The notes under the pieces are model-generated. The model was not told where the DNA came from. It ran no database searches and was given only the letters and a program-made list of their open reading frames with translations. From the NCBI GenBank assembly GCA_031384385.1, contig JANNAN010000008.1, positions 1-42,058 on the forward strand: a stretch of DNA of 42,058 bases, read 5' to 3'. How positions within the stretch are numbered: the stretch's first letter is position 1; each line of letters opens with the position of its first letter. Position numbers and translations under genes: made by a program. The stretch is from Candidatus Tayloriibacteriota bacterium (GTDB lineage Bacteria > Patescibacteriota > Minisyncoccia > Phycocordibacterales > PALSA-1337). Positions 1 through 25,527 of this stretch are shown piece by piece.

Positions 1-2
1 GC

Positions 3-1466
3 CCAGCTGCTTATACAGCTCCAGCAGGATGGACATGTCCAGGGACAACTCCAGTAGTTGTTACACCAGGAACAGGAACAATTACAACTCCAGGAATTCC
101 TGGAACACTTATTTATAATCTACAATCAACATTTAACAACAGTACTCTAGATAAGGGTAAGACAGTTGATGTTGCTCGTTATAAGTTACAAGCATCAGCT
201 TCAGATATGCAAGTTTCAAGCTTGTCATTTGATGTAAACAAGAGACTATGGTTGTACGTATCAGCTATAACTCTTAAGGATGATGCTGGAAATGTTATTG
301 CCTCAAAGACAGGTCTAACATCTTCAGATTTCTCTGAACTAAATGTTGGAGATAGTTATAGACTAACTCTACCTCTTAGTTATGTAGTTCCAAGAGCTAC
401 ATCAAAATACATAACTATAAACTTGACAGCTCAATCAGCAACAGACCGTACATCAACTGACACAATTACAATCACTTCATCACAAGCACGTGCAGTTGAT
501 GGAACAGGAGTAAATGATACACAAACTGATCCTACAGATCGTAATGTTGCTTGGACAGGAAGTAGTAATGCCGCTATTGTTACAACAATAGACAGTGCTT
601 CACCATCTACAAAGCTTGTACAAATTTCAACATCAGTTGAAACAGACAATGTAGTTCTAGGAGTATTCGATATTAAGTCACAAAACACAGCTACAATGTT
701 GAGAACACTTAAGGTAAGTGTTAGAACATCAGGAAATACAGTTAACGGATTGTTTAACGATATAAAGCTTAAGATTGGTGGAAATACATGGTCAGCTGAT
801 AGTATAGATACAGCTTCTCCAAATACAGTTTCATCATCTTCAGTTACATTCACAAACCTAAATACAACATTAACAAAGGATACTTACGTATCAGTTACTG
901 TTCTAGGAAAGGTTGCAAAGAATGTAACAGGATCAGCTTCTACAACATTGTATGCTAATGCAACAAACATTGTAGTTGAAGATTCTTCATACGCAGCAGT
1001 TTCTGTAAATACAGCAACTATTGCAGCAAATACACAGTCATTCACTACTTCAGGTGTTGTTGTAGTTAATCCTCTGGTTACAAAGGGTCAAAAGACTGTC
1101 ACAAATGCTGGTACAACAACAGAGACATTCTCTCTAGCGTTCGGACTAACAGCTGGTGATAATCCAATATACGTTGCTAAGGCAATTGGAACAGCTATTA
1201 CTGCTACAAGTAGTAATACAGCAGTTACAATTACTTCAACTGACTTCTCTGTAAATGACTCAAACAATGATGGAGCAACATACTTCTACATTGCCCCAGG
1301 TCAAACAAAGATATTCACAGCAACATATTTTGCTAGTGCAAATCCTGAATCATCTACTGTATTTAAAATCACTGATATCAAAGCTGGTGTAGATTCAACA
1401 ACTTTGAACAGTATAGATTTGAATTCATCTGATATTCAAAATGCTCTAAAGGCAACTATGTTCTAG
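3..1466 (+). CDS. 5'-truncated large Ser/Thr-rich surface (S-layer-like) protein
   Basis: The frame is open from the window edge (PAAYTAPAGWTCPGTT...) into ORF 207-1466; the protein is Thr/Ser/Val-rich and beta-strand-like; a strong terminator follows. Confidence 0.65.
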   Translation, partial: PAAYTAPAGWTCPGTTPVVVTPGTGTITTPGIPGTLIYNLQSTFNNSTLDKGKTVDVARYKLQASASDMQVSSLSFDVNKRLWLYVSAITLKDDAGNVIASKTGLTSSDFSELNVGDSYRLTLPLSYVVPRATSKYITINLTAQSATDRTSTDTITITSSQARAVDGTGVNDTQTDPTDRNVAWTGSSNAAIVTTIDSASPSTKLVQISTSVETDNVVLGVFDIKSQNTATMLRTLKVSVRTSGNTVNGLFNDIKLKIGGNTWSADSIDTASPNTVSSSSVTFTNLNTTLTKDTYVSVTVLGKVAKNVTGSASTTLYANATNIVVEDSSYAAVSVNTATIAANTQSFTTSGVVVVNPLVTKGQKTVTNAGTTTETFSLAFGLTAGDNPIYVAKAIGTAITATSSNTAVTITSTDFSVNDSNNDGATYFYIAPGQTKIFTATYFASANPESSTVFKITDIKAGVDSTTLNSIDLNSSDIQNALKATMF

Positions 1467-1483
1467 TCTTTAGTTAAAGAAAA

Positions 1484-1547
1484 CTCCCCACAACAGGTTA
1501 AAAAGTTGTACAAAAAGCCACTCGAAAGAGTGGTTTTTTGTTGTTTA
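1484..1547 (+). repeat. Inter-cassette repeat copy R1, includes intrinsic terminator hairpin
   Basis: ctccccacaacaggttaaaaagttgtacaa + AGCCACTCGAAAGAGTGGTTT (1516-1536) + T tract; near-identical to 3577-3640. Confidence 0.85.
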
Positions 1548-1656
1548 AATTTAGCTAATTTACTTCAATCTCTATTAAATCTTTATTCCGTCTACAGCAT
1601 TTCTTTATCTCGGGTTGGTAAGATTTGGGTATTATTAGGTTAATTAAATTTTAATT

Positions 1657-2046
1657 ATGTACATACAGGAATTTGATTTATGGAATGATCAGAAGAAAAA
1701 TATTAGTCAAACTATATTTACTCGTTTTTATAAGGAGCGAGAGATTTGGTGGTGTAATTTGGGAAAAAATATAGGTAGTGAACAAGATGGTAAAGGAGAT
1801 TATTATGAAAGGCCCGTATTAGTAATAAAAGCATTTAGCAGGTCTGTTTGTTTGATAATACCATTAACTACTTCTGCAAAAGAAAGTAAATTTTATTATA
1901 AAGTCGGTGTAATTGATGAGAAAGATGCTTCTGTTGTAATATCTCAAATCAAACTTATAAACACCAGAAGACTAACAAATAGAATATCGATATTAGATGA
2001 TGGAATCTTTCAAAACATAAGAAAAACCATCAGGGATTTATTCTGA
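1657..2046 (+). CDS. PemK/MazF-family endoribonuclease toxin
   Basis: Motifs EIWWCNLG.NIGSEQ.G, RPVLV, IPLTT, SQI..I...RL. Confidence 0.85.
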   Translation: MYIQEFDLWNDQKKNISQTIFTRFYKEREIWWCNLGKNIGSEQDGKGDYYERPVLVIKAFSRSVCLIIPLTTSAKESKFYYKVGVIDEKDASVVISQIKLINTRRLTNRISILDDGIFQNIRKTIRDLF

Positions 2047-2056
2047 TGGTTTTTCT
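2020..2056. terminator. Bidirectional hairpin spanning the mazF-1 stop codon
   Basis: 14-bp perfect inverted repeat agaaaaaccatcag (2020-2033) / ctgatggtttttct (2043-2056). Confidence 0.75.
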
Positions 2057-2105
2057 ACTTGTTCTCCCTATTTCTAGGGCGGGGCCGAAGCCATTGATAC
2101 TTAAT

Positions 2106-2133
2106 ATAATAGCAAATCAAAATTTACTGTCAA
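2106..2133 (-). promoter_or_regulatory. Convergent sigma70 promoter facing mazF-1
   Basis: Minus strand reads TTGACA-N16-TATTAT with an extended TG. Confidence 0.65.
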
Positions 2134-2141
2134 GAAAGATT

Positions 2142-2210
2142 AAGGGGAATTTAGATAATGAAAAAAGCTCTCTAGGAGATAAAACTCTCAGAGAACCTTT
2201 TTCGTCGTGA
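2142..2210 (+). pseudogene. Remnant 3' end of a NYN-like gene
   Basis: Reads KGNLDNEKSSLGDKTLREPFSS*, resembling the NYN C-terminus KDKLEYIRKAPLEDETSRSAFP*; same hairpin and convergent promoter context. Confidence 0.5.
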
Positions 2211-2215
2211 TGTAC

Positions 2216-2337
2216 ATATATTATCACCTTCAAAAAATTATACAAGAAGCCACTTAGAAAAGTGGTTTCTTGTTGTTTATTTTATCAACACCTTATCCCC
2301 GCGAGATAAAGAAAGGATAAAGTTTTTGTGGTTTTTG
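2216..2337 (+). repeat. Inter-cassette repeat copy R2
   Basis: Core AGCCACTTAGAAAAGTGGTTT at 2248-2268; left flank shared with R3, right flank shared with R5. Confidence 0.85.
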
Positions 2338-2405
2338 GCGTATACAATGATTTTCTAATTGCTAGAATATTTAGATGATTATAATTAACATATCTAAAAT
2401 AAAAT

Positions 2406-2795
2406 ATGCTGAAAAGATTTATAGAATGGATTGGATTAAAAGAAAAACTTCACAATAACAACTCCACACCACCTTTGGTCAAGGAAAGAGATTTGTGGTG
2501 GATTAGTATGGGTGAGAATATTGGTTCAGAGATAAATGGCAAGAGTAAACTCTTTTCTCGACCTGGAATTATTTTGAAGAAACTATCCCATGGTTTTTAT
2601 CTTATTGTTCCAACAACAACACAGAAAAGAGAGGGGACGTGGTATGTGAATATTCATCATAATGAAATAGATATGTATGCCTGCTTGCATCAGATCAGAA
2701 CAATTGATTATAGAAGATTATCAACAAAATTTGGACAAATTAGTCACGGGGAACTCACTAAGATTAAAGAATCATTTAATAAGTTATATAAATAG
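2406..2795 (+). CDS. PemK/MazF-family endoribonuclease toxin
   Basis: Motifs DLWWISMGENIGSEINGK, RPGII, VPTTT, QIRTIDYRRL. Confidence 0.85.
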   Translation: MLKRFIEWIGLKEKLHNNNSTPPLVKERDLWWISMGENIGSEINGKSKLFSRPGIILKKLSHGFYLIVPTTTQKREGTWYVNIHHNEIDMYACLHQIRTIDYRRLSTKFGQISHGELTKIKESFNKLYK

Positions 2796-2848
2796 AAACA
2801 AAATTCCCCACCTTTTGGGCGGGGCCGCGGCTAATGCCGAATGTAGAT

Positions 2849-2908
2849 ATATATTATCACCTTCAAAAATTTATGCAAGAAGCCACTTAGAAAAGTGGTT
2901 TTTTGTTG
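2849..2908 (+). repeat. Inter-cassette repeat copy R3
   Basis: Core AGCCACTTAGAAAAGTGGTTT at 2881-2901; the downstream block 2932-3000 resembles 1567-1613. Confidence 0.85.
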
Positions 2909-3039
2909 GGAAAATTTTTTTAATTGCTGACAATCTCTATCAAATCTTTACTCTGTCTACAGCGTTTCTTTATTTTGTCTTTAGAATTTCTTTATCTCGG
3001 TACGGTAAAATATATAAATTATTATTAAATTTAAATAAA

Positions 3040-3573
3040 ATGAATAAGATAATTGAATTACAAATTGAAAATATAGTTAGTCATATTTACTTTATTAGAG
3101 GTAAGAAAGTAATGTTCGATAAGGATTTAGCTGAATTATATAGAGTAGACACAAAAGTATTAAATCAGGCAGTAAAAAGAAATATAAAGAGGTTTCCTTC
3201 TGATTTTGTGTTTAGATTAAATAAAGAAGAAACTAGTATATGGTATAGGGTATATTCAAGGTCACAAATTGTGACCTTGGGGAAAGGACAAAATATTAAG
3301 TATTACCCTTATGTTTTTACAGAACAAGGTGTGGCTATGTTATCAAGTATTTTGAAGAGTGAAACTGCGATAGACGTAAATATTCAAATTATGAGAACAT
3401 TTACAAAATTAAGAGAAATAATGTCTTCGAATTCTGAATTAAGAAATAAGATTGAAGAAATGGAGAAGAAATACAATAATAATTTTGAAGTTATTTTTGG
3501 AGCAATTAAAGAGTTATTGGCCGAGCCAGAAGAGAAGATTGTTGAGAATAAAGAGAGAGTAGGTTTCAACTAG
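3040..3573 (+). CDS. ORF6N-domain DNA-binding protein
   Basis: IRGKKVMFDKDLAELY, NQAVKRN..RFP.DF, PYVFTEQGVAMLSSIL. Start moved to ATG 3040 because the ORF-track extension runs through repeat R3. Confidence 0.85.
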   Translation: MNKIIELQIENIVSHIYFIRGKKVMFDKDLAELYRVDTKVLNQAVKRNIKRFPSDFVFRLNKEETSIWYRVYSRSQIVTLGKGQNIKYYPYVFTEQGVAMLSSILKSETAIDVNIQIMRTFTKLREIMSSNSELRNKIEEMEKKYNNNFEVIFGAIKELLAEPEEKIVENKERVGFN

Positions 3574-3576
3574 TTT

Positions 3577-3645
3577 CTCCCCATAACAGGTTAAAAAGTT
3601 GTACAAAGAGCCACTTAGAAAAGTGGTTTTTTGTTGTTTATTTTT
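3577..3645 (+). repeat. Inter-cassette repeat copy R4
   Basis: Core at 3609-3629; left flank nearly identical to R1. Confidence 0.85.
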
Positions 3646-3723
3646 CTACATCCTATTGATTCTCCATCCAACTAAAAGTATAATAGTAGTATTGTAATCC
3701 CAAGATTTAATTTTAATAAAAAT

Positions 3724-4839
3724 ATGGCTCAAATAAAGCGTTATTTAGAAGAAAAAATAATAGAAAGTATTCAAAAAGACAAGATTTTGATTATTTATGG
3801 CGCTAGACAAGTAGGAAAAACAACTTTAGTTAAGAAATTTCTAATAGGTGAAAAATCACTATATTTAAATGGAGATTTTATTGATGATGCAGAAAAGCTT
3901 GATAAACCAACAAAAGAAATGGTTGCTAGATTTGAACAATTAGATTTACTTATAATTGATGAAGCTCAAAATATTAAAGATATTGGTTTAAAACTTAAAG
4001 TAATACATGATACATTGCCAAATCTAAAGATCATTGCTACTGGTTCATCGAGCTTCGAGTTATCTAATAAAATCAATGAACCCTTAACAGGAAGACACTT
4101 CTCACATTTGATGTACCCATTTTCTTTTAAAGAAACAAAAAATCAAAATACTAATATAAAGGAGTCGATGGTTTATGGAATGTATCCTGATGTATTTTTG
4201 CAAGAAACAATCAAAGATAAAAGAGAAATTATAGAAAGAATTGCTTCAAGTTATCTTTTTAAAGATTTGCTTAATATTGAATATATAAAGAATCCAAAAT
4301 CATTAGAACATCTATTAAAAGTATTAGCATCACAAATTGGTAATGAAGTTTCATTTAATGAAATTTCAAATACATTAGATATTGATATAAAAACTGTAAC
4401 TAAATATATAGATATATTAGAAAAACTTTTTATAGTATTTTCTCTAAATCCACTAACTTCAAACACAAGAAAATCATTAACAAAAAAGAGAAAGTATTAT
4501 TTTTATGATTTAGGAATAAGAAATGCTATTTTAGGAGACTTTTCAGAAATAGAAAGTCGTGTTGATAAGGGTGCTTTGTGGGAAAACTTTTGTATTATAG
4601 AAAGACTAAAGAAAAATTCGGCTGAAGATAAAAATCCAAGATATTATTTTTTTAGAACATATCAGGGTGACGAGATAGATTTTATTGAAATTGATGATGC
4701 TGTTGTTACTGGTTTTGAATTTAAATATAGTAAAGATAATATAAGTAGTAAGGTAAAAAAAATGTACAAAGTAGATCTGAATGGGCAAGGAGAGATACAA
4801 GTCATTAACACTGAAAATTGTATAAATTTTATTTCTTAA
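3724..4839 (+). CDS. AAA+ ATPase (AAA_14 + DUF4143 type)
   Basis: Walker A GARQVGKT, Walker B IIDEAQ, TGSS, LTGR, KYYFYDLG, C-terminal EIDF...FEFK nuclease-like motif. Confidence 0.85.
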   Translation: MAQIKRYLEEKIIESIQKDKILIIYGARQVGKTTLVKKFLIGEKSLYLNGDFIDDAEKLDKPTKEMVARFEQLDLLIIDEAQNIKDIGLKLKVIHDTLPNLKIIATGSSSFELSNKINEPLTGRHFSHLMYPFSFKETKNQNTNIKESMVYGMYPDVFLQETIKDKREIIERIASSYLFKDLLNIEYIKNPKSLEHLLKVLASQIGNEVSFNEISNTLDIDIKTVTKYIDILEKLFIVFSLNPLTSNTRKSLTKKRKYYFYDLGIRNAILGDFSEIESRVDKGALWENFCIIERLKKNSAEDKNPRYYFFRTYQGDEIDFIEIDDAVVTGFEFKYSKDNISSKVKKMYKVDLNGQGEIQVINTENCINFIS

Positions 4840-4847
4840 TAAAATCA

Positions 4848-4968
4848 TCCCCCACAACAATTAAAACATTGTACAAGAAGCCACTTAGAAAAGTGGTTTT
4901 TTGTTGTTTATTTTATCCACATCTTATCCCCGTCAAATAAAGAAACGATAAAGTTTTTGTGGTTTTTG
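4848..4968 (+). repeat. Inter-cassette repeat copy R5
   Basis: Core at 4879-4899; left flank R1/R4-like, right flank R2-like. Confidence 0.85.
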
Positions 4969-5005
4969 ATATATACAGAAGTTTTTACATTGTTAAAATA
5001 GTTGG

Positions 5006-5545
5006 ATGGAAGACATTAAAAAGGAAAATAATTACGCTTTTATTGATAGTCAGAATCTAAATCTCGGCATACAAAAGCTTGGTTGGAAATTAGATTATTT
5101 TAAATTTAGAATTTATCTTAAAGAAAAATATAATGTCAGTAAGGCGTATATATTTATTGGTTATATGCCCTTGAACCAAAAACTTTATGAAAAATTAAAA
5201 GAAACGGGTTTTATCTTATGCTTTAAACCAACAATACCAAATTCTGACGGTAAATTTAAAGGTAATGTTGATGCCGATATGGTTTTACAAACAATAATTG
5301 AATTGAATAATTATAATAAAACCATAATTATTTCTAGTGATGGGGATTTCTATTCGTTAGTAAAATATCTCTATGAAAATAATAAATTAGAAATAGTTCT
5401 GAGTCCTGATATAGGTGAGTGTTCAAGTCTTTTAAAACAGAATGCGAAAGAAAAAATTCATTTTATGAATGAACTAAAAGATAAATTAGAGTATATAAGA
5501 AAAGCACCGCTTGAAGACGAAACATCAAGAAGTGCTTTTCCCTAA
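5006..5545 (+). CDS. NYN-domain (LabA/DUF88-type PIN-fold) RNase
   Basis: AFIDSQNL, KGNVDADMV, SSDGDF acidic motifs. Confidence 0.85.
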   Translation: MEDIKKENNYAFIDSQNLNLGIQKLGWKLDYFKFRIYLKEKYNVSKAYIFIGYMPLNQKLYEKLKETGFILCFKPTIPNSDGKFKGNVDADMVLQTIIELNNYNKTIIISSDGDFYSLVKYLYENNKLEIVLSPDIGECSSLLKQNAKEKIHFMNELKDKLEYIRKAPLEDETSRSAFP

Positions 5546-11287: not shown

Positions 11288-12150
11288 GTTCTCTACACAG
11301 AAATATGTTAAGAAATCATTATTTTAAACGGCCATAACCACACCCTTTAAAAGGTGTAGAAATGAGTCGCTTAAAAAGCGGTTTTTTTGTAAAAATTTCA
11401 AAAGAAATTTCCGAACGACCGATACATTGACAATTTAATACTCCAACAATCTTGAACAATCAGAAGGTTGTTGGGGAAAAAGGTAATACTGTAATACATA
11501 TATATGATGAGGGTTTTTTCGAATATATATGTAGATATAGTATGTTGTTAAATAAACAGCCAAAAATATTAAATTATTTTTGTGCATGTTGTAGACAGAT
11601 AATTGTGGTTTTTAGATTTCCTAATGGGAAATTTAAGAGTATATGGTGGATGCCTTGGCTTCTAAGAAGCGATGAAGGACGTGGCGTGGCGACGATATGT
11701 TTCGGGGAGGTGCCTAGCAACCTTTGATCCGAAAATTTCCGAATGAGGAAACTCTCTGACTTCGAGTCAGAATTAAACAGCTTGACTGTTTAATGCACAC
11801 CCAGGGAAGTAAAACATTTCAGTACCTGGAGGAATAGAAACAAATATGAATTTCGTAAGTAGCGGCGAGCGAAAGCGGAAGAGCCCAAACCTAACCTTAA
11901 TCGTATTGCGGGACGCAAGTCTTGTGATGCGATTAAGGTTGGGGGTAGTAAGGTGAGAACGTACCATTTATGGTAGAAAAGTTACAAAATTTTTTGATAG
12001 AAGAATAAGCTGGAAAGCTTAGCCCTAGAAGGTGATAGCCCTGTAGTCGAAATCAAAAAATCTTTTTTGTTCTCATTCTTGAGTACCTCAAGACACGAAT
12101 GGCTTGAGGGAATCTGCCGGAACTAACCGGTAAGGCTAAATATTCTAGAA

Positions 12151-12190
<40 letters not shown>

Positions 12191-12763
12191 CAGCCCGGTA
12201 AGGGCGATGAAATAGACCTGAAACCATATATTTACAAGGAGTAGAAGAGGTAGCAATACCTCGACTGCGTGCCTATTGAAGAATGAGCCAACGAGTTGAT
12301 GCATGTTGCAGGCTAAGCGCGAGAGCGTGGAGCCACAGGGAAACCGAGTGTGAATAGCGCGTTAGTAGTATGCATCAGACCCGAAGCCAGATGAGCTTGC
12401 CTTGAGCAGGTTGAAGTTTGTCGAAAGACAGATGGAGGACCGAACGCTAAAGTTGTGCAATTCTTTGCGATGACTTGAGGTAAGGAGTGATAAGCTAATC
12501 GAATCTGGTAATAGCTGGTTCTCTCCGAAATAGCTTTTGGGCTAGCGTTGAATGTACCCCTCTGGGGTAGAGCACTGGAAGGTTCTGACAGGTCGAAAGA
12601 TCCCTGAACCTATCAAACTCCGAATACAGAGGATTAATTATTCAGCAGTTAGACGGTGGGGGCTAAGCTCCATACGTCAAAAAGGAAACAGCCTAGATCT
12701 CCATTTAAGGTCCCTAAATCTATGTTAAGTACACTTAAGGTGGTTGAATTTCTCAAACAATGA

Positions 12764-12795
<32 letters not shown>

Positions 12796-13602
12796 GAAAG
12801 CGTAACAGCTCACTCATCGAGAGATTCTGCGCCGCAGATAATCGGGGTTAAACATAGTACCGAAACTGAGGATTGTATTTTATTTCGATAATATACAGTG
12901 GTAGGAGAGTATTCTAATCTGCGTTGAAGGCAAAGGCGTGAGCCATGCTGGAGCGTTTAGAAGTAAGAATGTTGGCACAAGTAACCACAATGCGGGTGAG
13001 AATCCCGCACGCCGAAAGAACAAGGTTTCCTTGGCTATGAAAATCAGCCAAGGGTTAGTCGGGCCTAAGGGGATGGTGAAAACCGCACCCGATGGACACA
13101 TGGTTAATATTCCATGACTTTTATATAGAGTGATGAAGTGACGAAGTGCAGTATATGGTGCTCATTATTGGATTTGAGTGCATGCTATAGGGGATTGATC
13201 CAGGAAAATCCGGGTCGTGTCTTTAATGACAATTCCGAGTAGAGTGTAAATGTAGGGGTTCGCCCTTGCAGATATCATAAAGCGCGCTTCCGAGAAAAAC
13301 TTCTAAACTTATCTATATAGGAACCGTACCGCAAACCGACACAGGTGTTCAGGTCGAGTAGACCAAGGCGAACGAGTGAGAGGTCTCCAAGGAACTCGGC
13401 AAAAAATCAGCCGTAACTTCGGAATAAGGCTTGCCCTTTGTTAACTCAAGGGGCCGCAGCTAAAGTATCTCTGGCAACTGTTTATCAAAAACACAGCTCC
13501 CTGCGAACTCGTAAGAGGATGTATAGGGGGTGACACTTGACCAATGCCAGAAGGTCAAATAATGGCGGTGCGATTATATCAAGCTGACTGTTATAAGCCC
13601 TG

Positions 13603-13637
<35 letters not shown>

Positions 13638-13859
13638 TCTGCTACTCATGATTTGAGTGGCAGACGGACTAGGACTGTTATATAGCAAAGGTGTACGTTT
13701 TTAGATAAAATTAGTTAAAACAATTACATAAACAAGCTACCTGTTCATAAGTAATTATGAGCTGAGTCCAATGTGGTTAAATAGAGACCAACACCACACA
13801 TCCGATCTCCGTAAGGTGAGGATGAAGATAGAGTCCTACTGTGCTTAAAGGAATAGTAG
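13638..13859 (+). mobile_element. 222-nt group I-like intron at E. coli position L1931, no ORF
   Basis: Interrupts GGTCCTAAGGT^AGCGAAATTCC; preceded by U, ends in G; S-like AAGATAGAGTCC. Confidence 0.8.
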
Positions 13860-14522
13860 AGCGAAATTCCTTGTCGGGTAAGTTCCGACGCGCACGAATA
13901 GTGTAATGTCTGGAGAACTGTCTCGGAGACTTGCTCGGTGAAAATACAATATCGGTGAAGATGCCGATTACCTACAGTTAGACGAAAAGACCCTAGAAGC
14001 TTTACTGCAACTTGATTTTGACTATATGTTTTTTATGCGTAGCGTAGATGGGAGGATTTGAAGTTTTCTTTTCGGGGAAGATGGATCCGCAAGTGAAATA
14101 CCATTCTTAAAAAATATATATTCTAACCTCAACGGCAAAAACGATGAGAGACAGAATCTGGCGGGCAGTTTTAGTGGGGCGCTATCCTCCTAAAAAGTAA
14201 CGGAGGAGTTTATTAAGGTCAGCTAGCCGTGAATGGAAACCATGGCGATAGTGTATAGGCATAAGCTGGCTTGACTGTGAGACGTACTTGTCAAACAGAT
14301 GCGAAAGCAGAACTAAGTGAACCGACCTTACGCATTAGACGCGGGGGAAGATTATCGGATAAAAGCTACTCTAGGGATAACAGGCTGGTTGCGCCTAAGA
14401 GTTCATATCGACGGCGCAGTTCGGCACCTCGATGTCGGCTCAACTTATCCTGGGGCTGGAGAAGGTCCCAAGGGTTTGGCTGTTCGCCAATTAAAAAGTT
14501 ACGCGAGCTGGGTTCAGACCGT

Positions 14523-14878
14523 TCAGAAGTGAATGGTCGCCAATATAAGATGATTATTGACTGTTGAACAGTCTGAATCACTTCGAGTTAGTGTTAATTA
14601 AAAAATATTTTCGTTTAAAATAATTATAGATCTCAAGATTTATAATAATAAAAGATAAGGAAGTAGATCAATCAAATCACGGCGGTCCAGTATAGAAATA
14701 TATTCGGATCAAGTTAACTAGTATCGGTGGACTCCATTTAATAGTGGATTATACCGAGGGAAGTTGTCAATTAAATTTGGCTACACCCGTAGAGACTAAA
14801 CGTTAACTATCTAATTTGCGCGAAAGCGTAAAAAGATAATGCTATAGTCCAATGCAATGAGTAATCATTGAAAACATG
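14523..14878 (+). mobile_element. 356-nt group I intron at E. coli position L2593, no homing endonuclease
   Basis: Interrupts GGTTCAGACCGT^CGTGAGACAG; U before, terminal G; R motif AGAGACTA, S motif TATAGTCC, P4-like tcggt/accga. Confidence 0.9.
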
Positions 14879-15239
14879 CGTGAGACAGGTTGGTCTCCTA
14901 TCTACTGTAGGCGTTGATTCTTGAGGGGATTTGACTCTAGTACGAGAGGACCGAGTTGAACTGACCTCTGGTCTGACTGCTGTTCTACCAAGAGCATCGC
15001 AGTGTAGCTATGTCGGGAATGGATAACTTCTGAAAGCATCTAAGAAGGAAGCCAGCCCCAAGATTAGGAATCGTTTGAGACCCGTAAGAGATGATTACGT
15101 TGATAGGCTTTAGGTGTACGCATAGCAATATGTTGAGCCGAGAAGTACTAATCCGTCGATCCTATTAGGAAATTTAAGAACCACAATTATTTGTCTATAA
15201 CAATAATTATTTAACAACCTTTTGAAATTGAGTTTTTTG

Positions 15240-23174: not shown

Positions 23175-24670
<1,496 letters not shown>

Positions 24671-24874
24671 AAATTGAATCTACGATTTTGATCTTTTAGA
24701 TCATTATCTTACCGAGTCGATTGATTGTTAATATTTATATTTTCAGTCCAAAGGCCATTGTTCTACACCTAAACGTGAACACTCAGCCCGCGAGAGAAAG
24801 GGCATAGGTTGGTACCCTCTATAGAGGTACTAACCGAATGAACGGAACAAAATAAAGAACATTTAATTTTTATG

Positions 24875-25428: not shown

Positions 25429-25501
25429 GCGCGCATAGCTCAGTTGGTAGAGCACACCACTGATACTGGTGGGGTCCTAGGTTCGAATCCTAGTGCGCGC
25501 A
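25429..25501 (+). tRNA. tRNA-Ile(GAT), CCA not encoded
   Basis: Full cloverleaf: GCGCGCA/TGCGCGC acceptor, CACCA-CTGATAC-TGGTG anticodon arm, CTAGG-TTCGAAT-CCTAG T arm. Confidence 0.93.
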
Positions 25502-25527
25502 CAAAAAAGTGTTATAATGTAAGTACT

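Follow-up and report, generated by a model that had tools for sequence, protein, structure and literature searches.

The window analysed here, the 42,058-nt contig C16 of a 652-kb Candidatus Tayloriibacteriota assembly (24 contigs, ~33% G+C), carries two genes for toxins of the PemK/MazF family, mazF1 and mazF2, each faced by a convergent small-RNA (sRNA) gene that follows a common plan and is read on the minus strand. We found this RNA gene conserved beside one clade of MazF proteins in two independent genome samples; the original prediction for this DNA had staked its case on such conservation in homologs. It is probable, on the evidence laid out below, that the RNA is the antitoxin of this MazF clade, in place of MazE. 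The components of the two modules are as follows.

1657..2046, plus strand: mazF1, a 129-aa PemK/MazF-family endoribonuclease (PF02452 PemK_toxin, E 4.1e-14, 53.2 bits, residues 27-129)
2016..2098, minus strand: predicted sRNA-1, long form of ~80 nt, with predicted ends
2020-2056, both strands: bidirectional terminator after a spacer, overlapping the mazF1 stop codon (terminator scan)
2066-2079, minus strand: sRNA-1 hairpin B, with a GAAA loop
2083-2092, minus strand: sRNA-1 hairpin A, GGC-UUCG-GCC
2106..2133, minus strand: sRNA-1 promoter, TTGACA-N16-(TG)TATTAT, scoring 11/12, its -10 hexamer ending 6 nt before the model match
2406..2795, plus strand: mazF2, a second 129-aa paralog, of a different subclade (PF02452, E 3.8e-09, 37.2 bits)
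2796..2844, minus strand: predicted sRNA-2, short form of ~48 nt, with leader ACAUU and linker CGG
2806-2824, minus strand: sRNA-2 hairpin B with AAUUUUGUUU, jointly a terminator (terminator scan)
2828-2839, minus strand: sRNA-2 hairpin A, CGGC-AUUA-GCCG
2851..2878, minus strand: sRNA-2 promoter, TTGCAT-N16-TAATAT, read from the sequence

In both RNA genes a sigma-70-like promoter is followed by a 6-nt leader (ACAAAU or ACAUU), hairpin A, a linker, the GC-rich hairpin B and then a U-tail or a bidirectional terminator. The start region, (U)ACA followed by A/U-rich bases, lies 5-6 bases past the -10 hexamer; hairpin A has 3-4 bp and a 4-nt loop (UUCG in copy 1, AUUA in copy 2), and the linker, 3 nt long in both window copies, has a CGA core. 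The end of sRNA-2 adjoins the mazF2 stop codon (2793-2795). Folding of the minus strand gave z = -4.2 for 2015-2105 and z = -1.9 for 2790-2850. RNAs of about 80 and 50 nt, each closed by a hairpin with a U tract, had been predicted; the sizes agree with our reading, and the terminator scan detected the minus-strand structure at 2824-2806 as well as the bidirectional one at 2020-2056. The GC-rich motif said to be shared by the two copies, GGGCGGGGCCG, does occur exactly twice in the window (at 2077-2087 and 2817-2827, vs 0.01 matches expected), and with one mismatch allowed its sole other match in the whole assembly is an unrelated palindrome on contig C13. It is, however, no motif in its own right: it covers the beginning of hairpin A, the linker and one arm of hairpin B.

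The two minus-strand promoters proposed at the outset are likewise present in the sequence, but the one at 2878-2851 reaches only 7/12 and is absent from the list of the promoter scan. Its -35 hexamer lies within a repeated terminator element of the surrounding gene array, and its distance to the RNA core fits the family. Promoter matches alone prove nothing here, because promoter-like sites in the region occur at chance (30 found vs 29.3 expected; terminator-like sites, 14 vs 1.4); what carries weight is that the spacing between promoter and RNA core is constant throughout the family. A third copy of the RNA, beside the mazF paralog on contig C3, has the same promoter spacing. The comparison with Rfam that had been suggested yielded no family: there was no relevant match at gathering thresholds, nor at E up to 10 over 1400-3100. 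This includes RF02913, the pemK RNA motif (labelled 'Cis-reg'), which we take to be a candidate structured RNA that owes its name to the pemK genes it accompanies, and whose covariance model has no match in the region.

Of 401 genomes of the phylum searched at the protein level, 51 had homologs, and these supplied 73 genes with 3´ flanks. When the flanks are folded singly, most of the 73 show two hairpins whose spacing from a promoter close to consensus is constant. We also applied a strict descriptor, which requires a promoter, hairpin A 9-17 nt beyond it, a linker no longer than 7 nt and a hairpin B with 5 bp or more. It is satisfied by 55 of the 73 flanks, compared with 0/365 shuffled flanks and 0/73 on the gene strand. 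Among 674 flanks of open reading frames (ORFs) in the window's own genome it fits three, those of mazF1 and the C3 paralog and one apparent chance fit. MAFFT alignments of the RNA aligned hairpin A and missed hairpin B, so that a first model, R1, was built from four sequences of equal geometry; the second, R2, was then built from 42 R1 matches. R1, which matches sRNA-1 at 2061-2099 with 56.2 bits, is too short for specificity: in 151 genomes it gave 10 matches at E <= 0.001, six of them beside mazF genes. The four that have no adjacent mazF-like ORF score 20-23 bits; one lies inside a 506-aa ORF, and three fall, as we take it, in ribosomal RNA (rRNA) genes. At E <= 0.05, R2 gives a match on the expected strand for 57 of the 73 flanks, with two secondary matches on the wrong strand, and it recovers sRNA-2 on the expected strand with 26.5 bits (locus L089). 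By R2 or the descriptor, the RNA is found in 65 of the 73 flanks. The remaining eight comprise four long-hairpin variants recognized by eye, one 5´-extended variant, one flank with two to three tandem units, and two with nothing.

Tandem arrangements were seen at two loci. At L049 (G164:C1) the gene is followed by what appear by eye to be 2-3 tandem hairpin-CCGAG-hairpin units, recalling type III repeat arrays, and L013 (G350:C11) has two complete tandem RNA genes, each with its own promoter.

The second genome sample came from a one-genome-per-species scan with a narrower protein alignment (A10), which found 459 places encoding a relative of the toxin. We analysed the best 80 of these; nearly all are labelled Patescibacteria and none duplicates an earlier locus. 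R2 gave 85 matches at E <= 0.01, of which 80 are convergent and within 130 nt of a mazF-like 3´ end, and at 76 of the 80 loci a match immediately follows the matched gene (the clustering of gene ends was crude, and a count of 83 of 88 ends covered describes the same 80 R2 matches). Among the four loci that lack a match, one has a flank masked with N, one ends at the gene, and in two a variant can be recognized by eye. Of the five unassociated R2 matches, three follow N-terminal remnants of mazF. These remnants, of ~40-60 residues, precede intact RNA genes (22-29 bits) and adjoin an intact mazF module (L209 1313-1561, L221 421-629, L204 321-462); there, judging from the sequence, the toxin gene is decayed and the RNA gene kept intact.

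Five of the 80 best loci are labelled Bacteroidia, Bacteroidota, Nanoarchaeota, Methanosarcinaceae and Gammaproteobacteria (L167, L185, L183, L234, L211), and all five have the module. Such labels point to either mis-binned contigs or transfer beyond Patescibacteria.

A covariation check, also part of the original prediction, bears out the structure: both helices covary strongly. In alignment A8 (59 rows), 97.4% of cells are in standard pairs vs 65.2% in shuffles, two-sided changes occur in 131 cells vs 28, and all eight modelled pairs covary at values that none of 500 shuffles reaches. Shifting the partner by 1-3 columns as a slid-register control left 50-60% paired. The alignment of the independent set, A11, has 99.7% of cells paired vs 78.3%, with 127 two-sided changes vs 31. 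Loops and wobbles further indicate which strand is used. Among 59 parsed RNAs (12 of 71 were dropped, the parser having mis-assigned hairpin A), the loops of hairpin B include 31 GNRA and three UNCG vs two reverse complements of such loops, those of hairpin A 21 of GNRA/UNCG type vs none, and the pair cells of A8 hold nine G-U wobbles vs one A-C. By this sequence evidence from tetraloops and G-U pairs, the functional strand is the one opposite mazF. In the independent set, a promoter scoring at least 9/12 lies within 50 nt upstream of 68 of 82 R2 matches, vs 43 of 841 random positions, and in 64 of these 68 the -10 hexamer ends 5-6 nt before the match. This fixed spacing makes it likely that the RNA starts at the A of (U)ACAA. 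The sequences of leader and linker are conserved, and the family as a whole displays the 3´ convergent, single-copy architecture, with a promoter of its own, that had been put forward from the two window copies.

As noted in the original prediction, neither mazF1 nor mazF2 has an adjacent ORF of at least 30 aa that resembles an antitoxin. Two candidates were rejected: a 45-aa ORF at 1506-1643 runs through the repeated terminator element, and a 54-aa plus-strand ORF at 2046-2210, considered as antitoxin or peptide, covers the RNA core, with nothing comparable behind mazF2. Across the 73 loci, none of 63 co-directional upstream ORFs ending near the mazF start matches an antitoxin family. Many of them are the ends of unrelated housekeeping genes, which makes the module a self-contained insert. 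No match to the MazE family (PF04014) was present in the window's own genome. The 29 best PF02452 loci of 201 genomes of the phylum served as a control; of these, 23 encode canonical short PemK proteins that lack the N-terminal extension of the present clade and six belong to the extended clade. Canonical genes have an adjacent or overlapping upstream ORF in 18 of 23 cases, and 14 of those ORFs match antitoxin families (MazE 11, one of them below cut-off; Phd/YefM 2; SocA 1); none of the 23 fits the RNA descriptor or has an adjacent model match. At the extended-clade loci, 0/6 have an upstream ORF and 5/6 fit the descriptor. As far as the sequences tell, then, the RNA and a protein antitoxin exclude each other, and the division runs along the toxin clade, so that the RNA is most simply read as replacing the protein antitoxin.

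The toxins themselves are recognizable members of PF02452 (cut-off 23.1 bits), and the Pfam scan of both gave PemK_toxin only, with no ToxN, CptN or TenpN; PADLOC had no match for either. MazF1 and MazF2 share 34% identity, and the nearest relatives of MazF2 are 56% identical to it and have the same RNA subtype. The closest solved structures to the mazF1 product are those of Bacillus subtilis MazF/EndoA (4mdx, 1ne8, 4me7), with which its Arg (in ERP) and Thr (in PLTTS) align at positions that are presumably catalytic. Residues 1-26 of MazF1 lie outside the Pfam domain and form a clade-specific N-terminal extension; this segment of ~25 residues, with the motif FDxWNxxKK and an invariant Trp, is conserved in 38 relatives. 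Of the four PemK genes in the assembly, three belong to this clade, the third being that on contig C3.

The fourth PemK gene (contig C24, ~4560-5097; locus L002 1244-1794) belongs to another subfamily and has no N-terminal extension. It is faced by a convergent extended -10 promoter followed by what looks by eye like a multi-hairpin RNA of ~115 nt with a bidirectional terminator; a search of 400 other genomes of the phylum at E <= 1e-6 gave no homolog of its protein.

We infer transcription of the RNA, its antitoxin role and its mode of action from these patterns. In the mechanism that we propose, mazF and the convergent sRNA gene would make up a two-part toxin-antitoxin (TA) module in which the RNA takes the place of the MazE protein. 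The RNA would be transcribed from its own strong promoter on the opposite strand, starting at the A of (U)ACAA, and would fold into two stable hairpins with a short conserved linker between them. The short form (mazF2) would end at hairpin B with its U tract, the long form (mazF1) at a bidirectional terminator that it shares with mazF. The conserved core of the RNA, consisting of leader, hairpin A, linker and hairpin B, would bind MazF and block the RNase activity, as type III antitoxins do. The N-terminal extension possibly aids RNA binding, and the 3´ overlap with the mazF messenger RNA (mRNA) may add an antisense layer.

That the antitoxin acts by binding the MazF protein in this type III-like way is a tentative proposal, held with a little less than even confidence. 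Of 85 close relatives, 68 have a plus-strand terminator that separates the mazF stop codon from the conserved core; in these, the terminated mRNA therefore has no complementarity to the one part of the RNA that is conserved throughout. Protein binding would also be favoured by stable tetraloops rather than kissing loops, by the conserved leader and linker, by the clade-specific N-terminal segment of the toxin, by the RNA subtype following the toxin subclade (two RNA subtypes stand side by side in the window), and by the intact RNA genes kept beside truncated mazF remnants.

A number of points weigh on the other side. For window 1450-3050, no RNA sequencing run was listed and just one DNA run, possibly the source. 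A convergent site within ~60 nt of the stop codon would be needed by an antisense RNA and not by a protein binder acting in trans, and at short-form loci such as mazF2 the whole RNA would be complementary to the presumed 3´ untranslated region (UTR). RNase III is encoded in the window's genome. Conservation of the leader may in part be a start-site preference, and co-variation of RNA subtype with toxin clade is expected from co-inheritance of neighbouring DNA. The promoter of sRNA-2 is weak, and two of the 73 homolog flanks, L034 and L068, have no such RNA. Alignments A8 and A11 were fitted to the model structure, which favours pairing; the per-sequence folds and the descriptor controls are free of that bias, as they are independent of the model-fitted alignments.

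The strongest competitor, which we nevertheless consider fairly unlikely, is that the RNA is antisense and nothing else, similar to the type I systems. It would pair with the 3´ end or 3´ UTR of the mazF mRNA and reduce the amount of toxin made, the duplex being cut by RNase III or the protective 3´ hairpin being lost, with convergent interference as a possible addition; the hairpins would serve RNA stability and termination alone. The convergent arrangement fits this, with overlaps of ~39 nt at mazF1 (2018-2056) and ~48 nt at mazF2 predicted from promoter and terminator positions, as do the position within ~60 nt of the stop codon throughout the family and the RNase III gene. Type I antitoxins of B. 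subtilis pair at 3´ ends and recruit RNase III, according to PMC6562991. The short reach of sRNA-2 towards the stop codon had been offered as an argument against antisense action, and this argument falls, since that RNA lies wholly within the presumed mazF2 3´ UTR and 3´-end pairing is what that source describes. Against antisense as the sole mechanism stands the core placed beyond the plus-strand terminator. Moreover, perfect cis-antisense pairing does not need sequence conservation of leader, loops and linker, UNCG and GNRA tetraloops are poor start sites for RNA-RNA pairing, the overlaps are far below the 100-140 bp given for the B. subtilis systems (PMC6562991), and intact RNA genes persist beside truncated mazF.

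Less probable still is a dedicated partner of MazF that is not its antitoxin, namely a substrate, a cleavable sensor or a regulator of other genes, with the toxin restrained by an unlinked protein. There is a parallel in the solitary MazF-mx of Myxococcus, reportedly neutralised by the unlinked MrpC (PMC4803016). The leader ACA/UACA also resembles MazF sites, ACA in E. coli and UACAU in B. subtilis (both from PMC6562991), a likeness that may reflect start-site preference only. What speaks against such a partner is the mutual exclusivity with adjacent protein antitoxins across the phylum and the lack of a MazE-family gene in the window's own genome, and because the modules occur in unrelated genomic contexts, a conserved unlinked partner is unlikely in genomes so small. 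Finally, it is highly improbable that there is no minus-strand RNA gene and that the element is the 3´ UTR or terminator of the mazF mRNA, a recombination site of mobile cassettes or a tiny peptide gene: palindromic elements do occur within a cassette array of repeated intergenic DNA, and AUG or GUG stands at the junction of leader and stem in 79 of 85 cores, but the loop and wobble asymmetry favours the minus strand, a near-consensus promoter lies on that strand at a fixed distance, the descriptor finds nothing on the gene strand, the compensatory changes are RNA-like, and the 54-aa ORF behind mazF1 is without a counterpart behind mazF2. A peptide was rejected on the grounds that frames from the AUG/GUG range between 2 and 62 codons and their length is not conserved.

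Returning to the RNA as an antitoxin, the module shares traits with several known systems. The type III systems ToxIN, CptIN and TenpIN likewise combine an endoribonuclease of the Kid/MazF fold with a small structured RNA and have no protein antitoxin; as here, RNA type follows toxin clade and modules sit among defence-type genes. The type III definition (PMC5086642) calls for tandem direct repeats upstream on the same strand, one promoter with an intervening terminator, and processing by the toxin. Here, in contrast, the RNA is a single unit, downstream, convergent and with its own promoter, and the toxin is PemK/MazF by sequence and not ToxN, CptN or TenpN. The module thus falls outside the type III families, since its toxin is of another family and it has neither tandem upstream repeats nor a single-promoter operon. 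The type III-like AbiF/RCd22 system offers a precedent for an RNA motif beside a toxin gene: RCd22, a bioinformatic motif in that position, was found to neutralise the protein directly (PMC12373285). With the type I pairs of B. subtilis that overlap at their 3´ ends (txpA/RatA, bsrG/SR4, yonT/SR6), the module has in common an RNA promoter of its own and an available RNase III. It is not classical type I, since its toxin is a 129-aa soluble protein of an RNase family, whereas those toxins are small hydrophobic peptides; the predicted overlaps of ~39-48 nt differ from the 100-140 bp already mentioned (PMC6562991), and the core conserved across the family often lies outside the overlap. From type II MazEF/PemIK, with which it shares the PF02452 toxin and the Arg and Thr positions aligned with B. 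subtilis MazF, it differs in the extra conserved N-terminal segment and in having no adjacent protein antitoxin in the 73 loci; having no protein antitoxin, it is not type II. These comparisons are best read as pointing to a classical type II toxin that would be controlled by an RNA antitoxin, in an architecture that is new: one copy, convergent and with a promoter of its own. The literature searched, with supplementary files and subscription journals outside the search, held no description of an RNA partner of MazF/PemK in Patescibacteria or of a convergent RNA antitoxin of MazF.

It is conceivable, though we would put this too slightly below even, that the modules make up a widespread hybrid TA class, in which a true MazF/PemK RNase with a clade extension is bound directly by a single-copy, two-hairpin RNA of 45-85 nt. 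Protein and RNA antitoxins would then have been swapped on one toxin family, in hundreds of species-level Patescibacteria genomes, with two insulated subtypes side by side in the window. MazF/PemK is the textbook type II toxin, and an RNA antitoxin for a MazF clade recognizable by sequence, if real, would bring types I/III and II together on a single toxin family and open antitoxin replacement to direct tests. The two forms of the module, with the core outside or inside the mRNA overlap, allow a clean genetic separation of protein binding from antisense action. The RNA is also a new non-coding RNA family, with relatives of its toxin at 459 places in the one-genome-per-species scan, and to our knowledge hardly any regulatory RNAs have been described in Patescibacteria. 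Many annotated 'orphan' MazF genes are probably not orphans. MazF enzymes are used as sequence-specific RNases, and a compact natural RNA inhibitor of MazF could be a useful tool.

The two modules lie at the contig start in a cassette-like array (window 1-5545) of five co-directional genes with the same ~69-nt terminator element behind each. The elements of the array are these.

1484-1552, 2216-2284, 2849-2917, 3577-3645 and 4847-4915, window: the ~69-nt terminator element of the array
2242..2273, plus strand: terminator-like array element behind the mazF1 module

A core identical to the 2242..2273 element recurs at 2881-2901, behind the mazF2 module, where it probably ends the mazF2 mRNA. A whole-assembly search found no further copy of the ~69-nt element. 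The intergenic segments upstream are repeated as well, 1500-1608 being ~79% identical to 2865-2973 and 2232-2377 ~84% identical to 4863-5008, and the cargo includes an ORF6N protein (PADLOC PDC-S05), an AAA/DUF4143 ATPase (PDC-S01) and an NYN nuclease. From its sequence the array looks like a defence island assembled by recombination between shared intergenic DNA; an integron-like reading, suggested by the repeated 69-nt element, was considered as a possible account. Relative to the mazF2 flank, that of mazF1 has ~110 nt extra (2100-2215) between the RNA core and the shared array element. The extra segment supplies the strong promoter, and a weaker second promoter-like copy (TTGTAT...TAATAT, ~2250-2221) is still present in the shared element of this flank.

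The nearest relatives of the window's proteins are in genomes labelled Patescibacteria. Contigs C1, C2 and C18 (~55% G+C) and C6 (48%) depart from the ~33% of the rest of the assembly and are possibly mis-binned. Elsewhere in the window, a 23S rRNA match at 11620-15171 spans 3552 nt compared with the 2925 positions of the model, corresponding to ~600 nt of insertions. The 23S-5S pair is unlinked from the 16S gene (23175-24674), and a tRNA-Ile gene lies at 25429-25502.

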